From Candidatus Pacearchaeota archaeon CG1_02_32_21 (lineage in GTDB: Archaea > Nanobdellota > Nanobdellia > Pacearchaeales > GW2011-AR1), in contig MNVX01000033.1 of the NCBI GenBank assembly GCA_001872185.1, positions 1 to 40,792 on the forward strand: a stretch of DNA of 40,792 nt, in the 5' to 3' direction. The notes under the pieces were generated by a model. It saw only the letters and a list, made by a program, of their open reading frames with translations, was not told where the DNA came from and made no database searches. The translations under genes were made by a program, and so were the position numbers. This document shows positions 34,532 to 39,700 of the stretch, one piece after another (within the stretch, counting starts at the first letter, position 1; every line of letters begins with the position of its first letter).

Positions 34532-36084
34532 TCCATAAAAAATATTTTGTTTATTTTTTTATAGGTTGTATTATTTTATGGAGCCTTGTTTTTGTATCTT
34601 CCCAATCTGAAAGAATTAATATACATGACTCTTATAGTTTTGATGGCAGTTCTTTTAACGACCAAGTTGCCTTTGAAAATTATGGTTTTTCATTCCAAGC
34701 GACAGATATAGACTATTCTGCTGATCCAGATTTGGTCTGTTTTAATGTAGATTTATATAAGGCAGAAACAGAAGACTATTCCACAAGTTCTGGAGAGATT
34801 ACTATGGATTATTGTATTTATTCATCTTCTACAGATAGAGATGATTGCATTAATTACTGGGGTATAAATCTACCATTGTCAAACATGGAATTAGAAAATT
34901 TTTTAGATCAATTCCTTAATCAAAAAGTTTGTGATGGATGTGACTATGACACTTCAAATAGGTTTGGTGATTCTGTAGAAGTTGATATATTTTATGATTG
35001 TGATGCTAGTTCTAAATTTATCTCGGCTATTGGAAATTATTTTGTAATAAACCCGAGAGAATATTATTGTTTAAATAATGGGGATGATGAATATAGAGTA
35101 AGTGGGAGGACGTTTGACTGGTATAGCAATAAAAACATTTGGGTAGATTATGATATAAAAGAATGTATTGGGGATAGGATAGGTTGTGCTGAAGATAGGG
35201 ATGAAATAAATGATAATACTGGAACAACATACTTGCCCGACGTATGTGCTATTAAAGATGGGTCAAGAAGTTATTGTTATGGACAAGACGACCTTTGTAT
35301 TTCACGCAACTGTGGAGGAGGAAGAATAGATTTTAGTTCACAATGTGCATCCGATGGTTCAGATGCATATTTTTTACTTACTGAAGAATATAGAGATACA
35401 TGTGGAGGGGATGGAGACTTACAAGAAGTTTATTCAGAATACATAACATGTAGTGAAGATTTGGGAAGTGATTATATTTGTGATGTTGACAAAGTTGGAC
35501 AAGATATCGCTTCTCCATCTATCATTTGCAAGTTAAAAGAATACTCTTCTTGTAATATAGATTCTGAATGCTGGAATGATAATGGTGGATACGATTGTAT
35601 GGGTAATACTGGAAATAAAATATGCACAATGGGAGCTAATGGAAAAAATTGTTATAGTAATGATGACGCTCAATGTGATTCTTTTAGATGTGATAATACT
35701 TGTCAATCAAAATTAACAGATGGGCTAAGTTGTGATGAAAATAGTGATTGTATAAATGGGCAGTGTGGAGGAGGAATTTGTGGAGGAACTGGAGTTACAG
35801 TTGACCTTGCAGTTGTTGATATTAATCCCGTTCAAGTTATTCCAAATGTTGATTTAGTCAAAGGAAAATTTGGAATTGTAAGAATTACTGTAGCTAATTA
35901 TGGTTCTAACCAATCAAATGGTTTAGTTAATGTTACTTTTGATGGAGCACAGCTGAATATAGCTAGTGGAGATACCCAAACAAAACCAATTCCTCCAAAT
36001 AGGAATATTACATTTGATTTTGATTTCACTCCGACAAGTTCTGGAGATAATAAAGAAATAATTGCAAATGTGAGTGTTGTTTAA
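34528..36084 (+). CDS. Secreted acidic Cys-rich protein ending in an apparently incomplete CARDB/Ig-like domain
   Basis: Signal peptide; D/C-rich repeats; C-terminal VDLAVVDI...VRITVANYGS...IPPNRNITFDFDFTPTSSG...IIANVSVV*. Confidence 0.8.
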   Translation: MIHKKYFVYFFIGCIILWSLVFVSSQSERINIHDSYSFDGSSFNDQVAFENYGFSFQATDIDYSADPDLVCFNVDLYKAETEDYSTSSGEITMDYCIYSSSTDRDDCINYWGINLPLSNMELENFLDQFLNQKVCDGCDYDTSNRFGDSVEVDIFYDCDASSKFISAIGNYFVINPREYYCLNNGDDEYRVSGRTFDWYSNKNIWVDYDIKECIGDRIGCAEDRDEINDNTGTTYLPDVCAIKDGSRSYCYGQDDLCISRNCGGGRIDFSSQCASDGSDAYFLLTEEYRDTCGGDGDLQEVYSEYITCSEDLGSDYICDVDKVGQDIASPSIICKLKEYSSCNIDSECWNDNGGYDCMGNTGNKICTMGANGKNCYSNDDAQCDSFRCDNTCQSKLTDGLSCDENSDCINGQCGGGICGGTGVTVDLAVVDINPVQVIPNVDLVKGKFGIVRITVANYGSNQSNGLVNVTFDGAQLNIASGDTQTKPIPPNRNITFDFDFTPTSSGDNKEIIANVSVV

Positions 36085-36706
36085 AATGGTGAATAAGAAA
36101 GTTAGAAAAGTGAGAAATAAATATTTTCTTATAGGGGGACTAATCGGCGGGTTATACGCCCTAATCTCATCAATACTTATCATATTTAATATGTATTCCC
36201 CTGAGAATTCATTAAAATTTTTATTCTATATCTTCAACCCAGCATTTACAATTTTTATAATATCTGAAATAATTGTAATTAATCTAGTTGGTAAAATATT
36301 TAGTTATACTCTTCCAACAATTTTGACTATACTCTTTTTTATTTTTCTTGGAAGTTTTACTGGGTGGACAATCAAAAATTATAAGGTGATTCTCCAGAAA
36401 ATTAATTCATTTTATCTTACCATCTTTTTCTTAATGGCTTTTATTTTTGGTTTTTTAGGTATCCCTCCTTTTGGGACATATAGAAGAATTGGAGATTTTG
36501 GTATGCCTACGCCAACATTAATAATTAAAGTATCAATTTACCCTTTGATCTTACTTTCGAAAGGATTTAGTCTATTAAATATAAGTTTATCGGTAAGTGA
36601 GCATCCATGGCATGTGATTATTATAGCTTTTATTATAACTATATATTATTACTTAATCTCCAAAATTATTATTTATTTTTTCACAAAATACTGGAGGAAA
36701 AGTTAA
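36074..36706 (+). CDS. Multi-pass membrane protein, possibly two related halves
   Basis: About six hydrophobic segments; likely start at ATG 36086; ends 2 nt before the next ATG. Confidence 0.7.
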   Translation: MLFKMVNKKVRKVRNKYFLIGGLIGGLYALISSILIIFNMYSPENSLKFLFYIFNPAFTIFIISEIIVINLVGKIFSYTLPTILTILFFIFLGSFTGWTIKNYKVILQKINSFYLTIFFLMAFIFGFLGIPPFGTYRRIGDFGMPTPTLIIKVSIYPLILLSKGFSLLNISLSVSEHPWHVIIIAFIITIYYYLISKIIIYFFTKYWRKS

Positions 36707-36708
36707 GG

Positions 36709-39700
36709 ATGGTTTTTAGAAATATTTCTATATGTAAAATAGTTTTTGTATGTTTTTTTATCACATTAAATATTAACTTTGTTTTATCAAATAGTGATAC
36801 TGATTTATCAAATAATGCTATGTCTCTTCAAGTTGATGTTAAAAACACTAAAGAATTTAAGGTAAATTTTATTCCTATTGACTATACAAATAATATATCA
36901 AATTTTATAATATCGGCGGAGAAGAATATAGAATTTATTAATGTAACATACCCTTTGGCTAACGGAAAATTTATTTATGGTATTTCATCTAAAGAGTTTT
37001 TTTCATCTAATGTAGGAGATACGTTAGATTCATTAGAAGAACCAATTTTATTACTGAGATTATATAGATTTAGTAGGCTTGGAGGACAAGATTATGATCG
37101 TGTTGTAGGGATTGTTCCTATGAATTGGTTAAATCAACATAAAAGTAATGGATCTGGATTTACTTACATCGGAATGAACTCTGTGTTAATAGAAGATAAT
37201 TTTAGGCATGGCGCAGCTCATGAAATTGGACATACTATTCGTAACAATCTTGGAATAGGATTCTTTGGACTGTGTGATGAGAGTAATTCGGACATTTGGA
37301 AATTTAAACAAGATTTATTAATTGGATTATGTCCTAATGGAGATTCAAATCCAAATGATGGTGAATTGGATAGTGAATGTCAAAGAACACCTAATGGTTG
37401 TAATATAACTACTTTGAAAAGATTGGTGCCTTGGCCTCAAGATCAGCAAAATGATGAAATTACGATGTGGAATTTTATGGGAGATTCTGGTTTTGAAGAT
37501 AGTAGATGGATAAGTGAAGATTCTTATAATTATCTCTTAAGTAAATTCGATGAAGAAAGTTCTATTCAAAGTGGGAATACAATTTTGATTTCCGGAATTA
37601 TTTATGATGATAACTCGGTTTCTTTTGATAAATTCTATATTTTAAATGAAAATTCTTTTATAAATGAAACTTACTCGTATGGGAACTATTCTATCACTCT
37701 TAAAGTCAATAATTCTATTTTTTATAATTATGAATTTGAACCAATTTTTAAGATGATTCACACGGGTGGAGATACTACAGATACCAATATTACACCTTTC
37801 GTAGCAGTCTTACCTTTCGCAGATAATGTGACACAAATAATTGTACAAAACTCAACCACAATTCTTGCTGAAAGAAATGTGTCTGCTAATACTCCTACAG
37901 TATCATTTAATAACTCGTTTCAGGGAGAGTCTTATAATGATTCTTTTATGATTACCTGGAATGCTGATGATACAGATGGTGATAACCTTACATATGCTGT
38001 TCTAATTAGCGATGATGGAGGAAATAATTTTACTACAGTAGCCCTTGATATTGATGAAACTAATTTAGTCATAGAAAATAGTTTATTAGAAAATGGATCT
38101 GAATTTAAGATTAAAGTATTGGCTACAGATGGGGTAAATACTGGGGAAGATATAAGTAATTTTAGCTTTAGTATTGAACCTGATCCATTTATTGACTTGA
38201 TTTACCCGGAGGATGATATAAGGCTTCAGACCAATAATGTTACTTTTTTTTATAGAACAACTGTACTGGACGGAAACATTACTAATTGCTATTTGTTTAT
38301 CAATGGCAACTTAAATTTGACCAATGATTCTGAGATAGTCCAAGGAGTTGTTATGAATTTTACTCAATCTTTTAGTGACGGAGAATATAACTGGACTATC
38401 CAATGTGTAGATACAAATAATTTCGTAGGAGAATCAGAGTTATACACACTTGATATAGGATTAGTTATCCCCGAAATACTTGAAATTAATGTTTATCCCG
38501 ATACACAAGAATTTTTGGAAAATGTTACAATTAATGTTACATTAGCTTACCCTACAGATGTTGTTTTAGTAACTTTGAATATAACTAATCCCAATGGTAG
38601 AGTATATGAATATTACAATTTGTCAAATATATCTTTTGGTATTTGGGGTCTAAATAATTTTACAGATAATGTAACTGGAACATATAATTTTACTTTTTTT
38701 GCATATTATAATGGTGGAACATACGTAAAAGAGTCTAGTAATTTTATGATGGTTGAAGAAATAATAAACCTTACTAAGTGTAAAGAATTAGATAAGGAAA
38801 ATACTACTTATTATTTAACTAAAAATATTCTTGCTTCTGGGACTTGCTTTAATATACATGCGGATAATATTACCCTTGAGGGAAATAGTTATGTAATTTA
38901 TTATGCTGAGTCATCCCAAGGATATGGTATTTATGTTGATGGATATAACAAAACTAAATTAAAAAATATAAGAATTAGGATGGATAATAGCACTACAACA
39001 GATAGCGTAGGAATTTACCTTAGGAATGGTGAAAACCATTTAATTGAAAATAATGAAATGGTAATTAGAGGATCTAATTTATCAGATTCAAGAAATCATG
39101 GGTTAAAGTTAAAAAATGTAATTAATTCTAATGTATTAAATAATACAATTAATGTATTAAATAAAAAAGGCTATGGGGTTTATTTGGAATCTTCAAATGG
39201 AGAGATAACCTCTAATAATAAACTGATTAATAATACAATAGTTACCTCCAAAGATAGTGGATATGGAATCTATATATGGGGAGTTAATGGAGGAGTCTCT
39301 GAATATTCTACTATATTGGGCAATATGATTAAAACGTACGGATCAACATCATATGGTGTATTAATACAACAAAGTACTCCTTCTTTAGTAAGGAACAATT
39401 TATTTGAAAATAACTTCATTTCTACTTCTGGTGCTAATTCTAATGGAATAAAAATTATCAGCTCTCAAAATAATTTCTTCAAAAATAGCAATATTTCCTC
39501 TTCAAAGGATAATGATGTATTAATTTCTTCTGGAACAAATAACACTTTCTTAAATACTTCTTATATTGATGAATTGATTTCTAGCGGATCTTTAATTAGG
39601 GGATGGTACTTGAATGTATATGTAAATAATAGTGTGGGAAATAATACTATTGGTGCAAATGTAAGTGGTAGTGACGTATTTGGTTCTTTAGATTTTTCTG

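Follow-up and report, generated by a model that had tools for sequence, protein, structure and literature searches.

Why does a secreted archaeal protein end one strand short of a complete immunoglobulin-like (Ig-like) sandwich, and why does a second secreted protein of the same gene cluster begin with a peptide that resembles this strand? The question is raised by a stretch of 40,792 nucleotides from Candidatus Pacearchaeota archaeon CG1_02_32_21 (contig MNVX01000033.1), here called the window. Three of its genes were studied: gene A (34528..36084, + strand) encodes a secreted head protein of 518 amino acids (aa), gene B (36086..36706, + strand) a polytopic membrane protein, and gene C (36709..40242, + strand) a protein of 1177 aa with a signal-peptide-like start, a donor segment, a HEIGH protease, sandwich modules and a beta-helix. 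A preliminary description had proposed that A and C share one CARDB/Ig-like domain and may dock by strand donation to form a surface protease. Comparisons of sequences and structural models support an apparently undescribed variant of donor-strand complementation, in which a split CARDB-like domain serves as a one-to-one connector in DPANN archaea. It is considered likely that a naturally split CARDB-like domain is rebuilt in trans and that the A, B and C operon gives a two-chain surface protease.

Position of the cut in the CARDB-like domain

The product of gene A consists of a signal peptide, a Cys-rich head of ~395 aa and a C-terminal beta domain. The C-terminus reads ...DLAVVDI...VANYGS...FTPTSSG...IIANVSVV and is followed by a TAA stop at 36082-36084. 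An incomplete CARDB-like sandwich, strands A to F, occupies residues 424-518 (35797..36081, + strand), and the chain ends right behind strand F. All five close homologues of A (509-577 aa) end at the same alignment column. The head of A matched no family in Pfam or NCBIfam, and its Atlas structural matches had template modelling (TM) scores of 0.32 or less.

In gene C, residues 1-27 (36709..36789, + strand) are signal-peptide-like, end in ..VLS and are presumably cleaved off. They are followed by NSDTDLSNNAMSLQVDV at 36790-36840. The donor segment, residues 28-47 (36790..36849, + strand), contains the CARDB tail motif DxDxxNN and then strand G (AMSLQVDVK).

Fused homologues were looked for and found. 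In these one-chain proteins the domain is uninterrupted, with the pattern IQVV..(V)DLV.GK in the beta domain, then ...D(P).N...E.NE.NN, a strand and the protease. In a 27-sequence alignment, 9/9 A-type proteins stop at one column after strand F, and 18/18 one-chain proteins continue through a loop and strand G into the protease. The one-chain protein of genome G117 was modelled by AlphaFold2 over residues 490-850, with a predicted local distance difference test score (pLDDT) of 93.3 and a predicted TM score (pTM) of 0.91. In this model, segment residues 84-97 (strand F) and 102-114 (strand G) pair as a hairpin, which runs into the first protease strand (119-126). The end of A falls in the column of the F-G hairpin turn, and the mature N-terminus of C aligns with the one-chain loop and strand G. 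The preliminary description had placed the split inside a single domain and had likened the N-terminus of C to the missing strand; both views were confirmed, the cut lying within the sandwich, at the F-G hairpin, rather than between domains. The peptides that it had quoted from A and C were also present in place in the translated open reading frames (ORFs).

The identity of the domain was established on the relatives of A. The one-chain protein P0066 matched Pfam CARDB (PF07705) at residues 118-213 with 52.3 bits against a cut-off of 22.7; in the one-chain protein P0069, only profile positions 63-100 were matched (27.3 bits). The family profile (alignment A5) matched the solved structures 2l0d_A (E 5.6e-7), 2kl6_A (E 2.1e-5) and 3idu_A (E 4.9e-5) in the Protein Data Bank (PDB), and the profile positions matched on solved CARDB domains (14-119 and 53-122) include strand G. 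When trimmed A-F domains were searched, 3/10 matched Pfam CARDB, with a best E of 0.012; the window's own copy gave no match.

Residues 405-518 of A were modelled alone by AlphaFold2. The model had six main strands and no seventh. Its residues 21-114 matched residues 438-522 of the solved CARDB chain 3idu_B with Z 8.3 (VIA-align), and the one-chain model covered 3idu 426-540 with Z 10.2. Since the model of A stops at 3idu 522 and the one-chain model at 540, A lacks ~18 residues of the fold; their homologue is found in C. The domain of A was thus not complete without the peptide, with six strands and only part of the 3idu range. As modelled, the CARDB fold is complete only across the two chains.

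Predicted docking of A with C and the protease of C

C residues 28-300 were co-folded with A residues 405-518. The interaction prediction score from aligned errors (ipSAE) was 0.86, 0.87 and 0.87 in three runs, and the best of three controls scored 0.28. The mark used for co-folds was reached by 58 of 80 solved complexes and by 2 of 110 mismatched pairs, counts that apply only approximately here because the co-fold was run on custom alignments. The runs shared at least 95% of their contacts, and the partner had a pLDDT of 84. C residues 35-47 contacted A residues 426-432 (strand A) and 504-516 (strand F), and the residue pairs 38-513, 40-511 and 40-432 put this segment in the place of strand G. 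The conserved VQVIPNVDLVKGK stretch of A, residues 434-447, contacted the protease body at C residues 79-85, 233-239 and 267-282. The prediction therefore agrees with the proposed docking by strand donation, with C 35-47 inserted at an ipSAE of 0.87 against 0.28 for the control.

The tail of A and the head of C also co-varied. In seven loci an ANVSVV-like A tail occurred with a [ST]DxNxxNN head in C, and in three loci an IKIEVNET-like A tail occurred with a C head without the NN motif. As the loci are related, this pattern fits co-evolution without proving it.

Comparison with the one-chain proteins shows an ancestral single chain of head, CARDB-like sandwich and metzincin, cut at the F-G hairpin. 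The head stayed with strands A-F in A, which has a signal peptide of its own; the tail motif stayed with strand G and the protease in C, which has another. In the proposed mechanism, after export, the free N-terminus of C (residues ~35-47) would enter between strands A and F of A, which would be donor-strand complementation. The VQVIPNVDLVKGK stretch of A would pack onto the protease body, and the one-chain architecture would be rebuilt.

The protease domain of C is of the metzincin type (36850..37563, + strand), with HEIGH at residues 171-175 (37219-37233). A search with C residues 1-330 at E up to 0.001 found 136 homologues among 1.84 billion representatives. The consensus of the family reads AHExGHTYGLC[DE]EY; its H, E and H do not vary, and GLCDE is conserved. 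In the NFMG motif, M is nearly invariant and G is invariant, and the family also has invariant Cys columns. Metzincins are defined by the zinc motif HEXXHXXGXX(H/D) and a conserved downstream Met, and the family consensus, together with the conserved NFMG, agrees with this pattern. The window's own C has an insert of ~10 residues between HEIGHT and GLCDE (37219-37290, residues 171-194), which gives its zinc motif a non-canonical spacing. The insert was also present in P0009, the closest homologue; most homologues read HE.GHTYGLCDEY.

The catalytic fold was compared with solved folds on the model of the one-chain homologue, used in place of C. This model matched archaemetzincin 2x7m with Z 14.3 over 155 aligned residues, adamalysin 1dth with Z 12.8, fragilysin with Z 12.5 and ADAM/ADAMTS proteins with Z ~12. 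Foldseek aligned it to 1dth with E 5.4e-5 and TM 0.60. StcE (3ujz) was aligned with Z 13.4 and a root-mean-square deviation of 4.8 over 282 residues, across the Ig-like and catalytic domains. No Pfam peptidase family was matched on C at E up to 0.1. None was matched at E 0.01 on 11 homologues, barring a sub-threshold match of Reprolysin_4 on P0078 (16.8 bits against a cut-off of 22). StcE was not among the PDB sequence-profile matches at E up to 1, and a single-sequence PDB search with C gave no solved relative at E up to 10. The likeness to M66/StcE proteases noted earlier thus stands for fold and architecture; membership of C in the M66 (StcE) family was rejected, given no Pfam peptidase match.

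The remainder of C (37564..40242, + strand) contains beta-sandwich/FN3-like modules, a right-handed beta-helix and a C-terminal module of ~120 aa. Pfam Beta_helix was matched at residues 717-861 (E 1.9e-8). The C-terminal ~117 aa (39890-40239), ending ..LCLTGGLYENSNP, are 88.9% identical to a stretch on contig C17 of the same genome, and the last ~500 aa have 46% identity over 504 aa to a gene on contig C31 of this genome (tblastn). Similar C-terminal ends occur on the proteases of G142, G244 and G375. The shared C-terminal module may be a surface-attachment or sorting module. Only these C-terminal modules of C recurred when the own genome was searched by tblastn; for the A-F domain, the protease and B, no further copy was found.

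Recurrence of the split and competing explanations

Two further metagenome runs contain contigs that agree with the window, with 0 differences, over 35700-36814 and 35710-36730. These independent contigs span the A stop, the entire B and the start of C. Split loci with gene context numbered 10 in nine genomes (G000, G095, G375, G142, G244, G106, G747, G464 twice and G647), and one-chain loci with gene context numbered seven (G117, G294, G254, G183, G274, G720 and the distant G714). Some of these loci were added from a phylum-level sample of genomes. A locus search with a 10-row alignment gave six loci, five of them on contigs already known. The split is therefore not peculiar to this assembly: its junctions are reproduced by independent contigs and it recurs at 10 loci.

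The 136 homologues and C itself were sorted by hidden Markov models (HMMs). The 137 proteases comprised 56 one-chain, 41 signal-peptide-only, 8 membrane-fused, 8 other and 7 truncated forms, together with 17 with a short N-terminus, mostly of the signal-peptide-only kind or partial. A search with the trimmed A-F domains gave 35 proteins, which with four found earlier made 39 domain-bearing proteins. Among these, 22 end at most 8 residues after strand F, 15 are one-chain and two are partial. The occurrence in nine genomes and the at least 41 signal-peptide-only protease clusters agree with the earlier view that simple gene breakage is not the cause.

The heads of the A-type proteins differ, being Cys-rich without a known family, NosD/beta-helix, FG-GAP/VCBS or subtilase (precomputed Pfam). 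With at least four head kinds among 22 A-type proteins, the head appears to be swappable, as had been suggested. The same plug behind very different heads points to the split as a connector between interchangeable binding or enzyme heads and a common protease base. P0165 (599 aa) is an A-type protein that ends after strand F and has a head with Pfam Peptidase_S8 (subtilase), so a second protease may plug onto the metzincin base in some organisms.

A protease tree was built by FastTree from 87 domains with the strand-G columns excluded. As 40 of its 84 inner branches are open, it was used solely to say that split and one-chain forms interleave. One clade of 24 was nearly all one-chain, and a well-supported clade of 55 was mixed (34 signal-peptide-only, 14 one-chain, 7 membrane-fused). 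Between the split and one-chain states, nine or more changes were needed, at least four of them forced by starred branches. The tree suggests repeated fission or re-fusion in the history of the protease, as would be expected if both states work alike.

Gene B encodes 206 aa from ATG 36086, or 210 aa from GTG 36074. Hydropathy indicated 5-6 hydrophobic segments with basic N- and C-termini. B matched no family in Pfam or NCBIfam, and its best Atlas score (0.87) was below the bar. It is 42% identical to its G095 counterpart, and a word-indexed search for B homologues recovered B alone. Every one of the 10 split loci has, between A and C or joined to C, a gene whose product contains one or more hydrophobic segments. 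These intervening proteins have one to ~six segments and range from two small proteins of ~100 aa to 285 aa. In G375 and in seven other clusters (eight membrane-fused in total), the B counterpart is fused in frame to the protease. In the fused forms the last membrane helix replaces the signal peptide of C, and 8/8 membrane-fused representatives keep a small-x-small motif ahead of the donor segment. The basic termini of B, judged by eye, fit a topology with both ends cytoplasmic, so that the helix of C would cross the membrane outwards from the cytoplasmic side, as it does in the fused form. A guess from these sequences is that B has a link with exporting C or positioning it; an anchor, a chaperone or an immunity factor, as suggested earlier, are all possible roles.

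Several observations weigh against a two-chain protease rebuilt in trans. The open sandwich of A was modelled confidently by itself (AlphaFold2), with a domain pLDDT above 90, so this model shows no sign of a need for a partner. The co-fold alignments contain one-chain homologues, and the score may therefore replay intra-chain contacts. Pfam CARDB was not matched on A itself at E up to 0.1, and its CARDB membership is held by transitivity through one-chain relatives. The intervening membrane proteins are barely alike, with weak pairwise BLAST matches (composition correction off), and the constant position of their gene may reflect inheritance rather than need. The protease is sporadic, occurring in 12/401 genomes of the order and, within the genus, in 0/14 further genomes. 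Because the genomes are related, the 10 loci do not count as 10 independent events. There are also decayed copies in G464: L050 (contig C6) and L051 (contig C7) are decayed copies of the module, one with an in-frame stop in the protease gene and the other with the A gene reduced to a 121-aa remnant without signal peptide or head.

If the fission left two independent proteins, the domain of A would be stable and closed alone, and the strand of C would pack on its own protease. This is regarded as quite unlikely. It would account for the high pLDDT of A without a seventh strand, and for a clade of signal-peptide-only proteases (P0052, P0079 and others) that keeps strand F, the loop and strand G; strand F on P0052-type proteases suggests that the hairpin can stay with the protease. 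It does not fit a cut within the sandwich hairpin, complementary pieces that are adjacent in 10/10 split loci, the co-variation of the A tail and C head, a co-fold score far over the controls, or the VQVIxxVDLVKGK stretch, still conserved in A-type proteins and in contact with the protease in the co-folded model. Alternatively, the missing strand of A might come from another donor, namely B as a tether or chaperone-like protein, or another copy of A, which would give a chain of heads; the N-terminus of C would then be just one among several donors. Known donor-strand systems, such as the chaperone-usher pili, cap the open groove with a chaperone first. TapA is reported to do so for TasA (PMC10151520). 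The membrane-protein gene between the halves in 10/10 split loci would suit such a role; the B proteins, however, are poorly conserved, vary from ~100 to 285 aa, include some with a single segment and have no conserved strand-like loop that could be seen, and the donor segment of C is a true homologue of strand G. A donor other than C is accordingly thought very unlikely.

An artefact or a dying gene, in which a frameshift, mis-assembly or insertion broke a one-chain gene into pseudogenes, is scarcely credible. Decayed copies do exist in G464, and the window comes from a metagenome-assembled genome of 40 contigs. Against this, the contigs of other runs are identical with 0 differences, and the stop of A is conserved in 5/5 close homologues. 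A signal peptide is present on C itself, and B keeps a long open frame, joined in frame to C in G375 and in another seven clusters. There are also 22 A-type clusters and 41 or more that are signal-peptide-only.

The two-chain protease rebuilt in trans thus remains the likely explanation. An elaboration of it, which is judged unlikely, is that B holds or presents C's donor strand at the membrane until the head, exported on its own, reaches it, so that assembly is regulated and membrane-proximal. In such an assembly, B, embedded in the archaeal membrane, would correspond to the chaperone or usher of pili. One base would serve different heads, and the joint might be locked by a metal ion at the DLxVxD / DxNxxNN site that spans the two chains. 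If true, it would be a new way for DPANN cells to build and re-arm a host-contact surface.

A second kind of N-terminus was observed among the proteases. Here the signal peptide is followed by strand F, the D(P).N...E.NE.NN loop and strand G, after which the protease begins, so that the cut lies one strand earlier. It was found in P0052, P0074, P0076, P0077, P0079, P0081, P0090, P0098, P0116 and P0141, and all of these except P0077 and P0098 form a clade with support 94. A phylum-wide search with P0052 returned no locus of this kind. P0034 (700 aa) has three N-terminal membrane segments, then just the second half of the CARDB-like domain (HMM positions 48-90), and strand G ahead of the protease. 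Recombination, a wrongly called start or a different cut of the domain could account for it.

Related systems and surroundings of the locus

The one-chain CARDB-metzincin proteases (P0066, P0069 and G117) have the same order of domains, with the last sandwich strand leading into the first protease strand. StcE (MEROPS M66, PDB 3ujz) is alike in architecture and was aligned over both domains. In contrast to these, the system studied here has two genes, each with its own export signal, and a membrane-protein gene between them.

Donor-strand complementation is known for polymerising pilins and matrix fibres. In chaperone-usher pili (Fim, Pap), an Ig-like fold without its G strand is completed by the N-terminal extension of another subunit. 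The likeness lies in an Ig-like fold without its last strand that is filled, here by prediction, by the N-terminal segment of another secreted chain. In the pili, paralogous pilins polymerise with a periplasmic chaperone and an outer-membrane usher, whereas A and C are predicted to form a one-to-one pair of an enzyme and a head protein unrelated to it. Here the origin is the fission of one domain, in an archaeal host that has just one membrane. The locus gave no sign of a chaperone or usher homologue, since no Pfam or NCBIfam family was matched on A, B or the upstream gene g1.

Cohesin and dockerin of cellulosomes form a standard plug that mounts varied modules on a common cell-surface partner. 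They bind as two complete folds, whereas here one fold is shared between chains. In SpyTag/SpyCatcher and engineered split Ig-like domains, a strand-less beta-sandwich is completed by a peptide tag. SpyTag/SpyCatcher is man-made and isopeptide-locked; the present pair is natural, with no covalent lock indicated. In two archaeal systems, Sulfolobus threads (PMC9715654) and Pyrodictium cannulae (PMC12518558), extracellular proteins are reported to be held together by donor-strand complementation with no dedicated chaperone, and calcium coordination is also named for the cannulae. Threads and cannulae are homopolymeric filaments, whereas A and C would form a heteromeric connector between a variable head and a protease. 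Titles and abstract beginnings in the literature contained nothing that pairs CARDB with a donor strand, and nothing on a split CARDB or this protease.

In the present locus the donor-strand principle seems to be born from cutting one ordinary domain, and it apparently connects an enzyme to exchangeable heads. If true, this would provide a natural split-domain tag of ~95 aa and ~15 aa, with many diverged cognate pairs, for use in protein engineering. It would also be a clear case of a fold kept across gene fission, and a handle on the surface machinery of uncultured DPANN archaea, whose host contact is poorly understood. For annotation, "truncated" Ig-like domains at protein ends may be halves of pairs.

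The window is contig C27 of a 676-kb metagenome-assembled genome of 40 contigs with a GC content of ~31%. It contains archaeal replication and repair genes (PCNA, a Rad51-type recombinase, CDC48 and the primase small subunit), and the runs that contain the locus stretch are groundwater or aquifer metagenomes; none of those listed for 35700-37000 was an RNA run. Records of close homologues bear the titles Candidatus Pacearchaeota, Woesearchaeota or Nanoarchaeota archaeon, so the host is of the DPANN type. Genes g1, A, B and C are tightly packed on the + strand, with gaps of 1 nt between A and B and 2 nt between B and C. Gene g1 (33431..34531, + strand) shares 4 nt with the start of A; its 366-aa product has a hydrophobic segment near the N-terminus and belongs to no family in Pfam or NCBIfam. 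Homologous genes are found immediately upstream of A in G375 (31% identity, E 1.5e-43) and G747 (E 1.6e-12), and g1 may belong to the same operon as A. In one-chain loci, the upstream gene is instead a conserved secreted protein of ~505 aa, and those of G117, G183 and G294 are mutually 55% identical.

Directly after C, a partial ORF (40267-40791, + strand) runs off the contig end; its product has an N-terminal hydrophobic segment and is a predicted surface protein. A predicted surface protein of 714 aa with a Laminin_G_3 domain is encoded at 10703-12847 on the - strand. A 201-aa ORF at 17234-17839 on the - strand matched Pfam RVT_1 (reverse transcriptase) with E 4.5e-9 and is directly adjoined by a 126-aa ORF at 17839-18219. 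The RVT_1 ORF may be a fragment of a retroelement.

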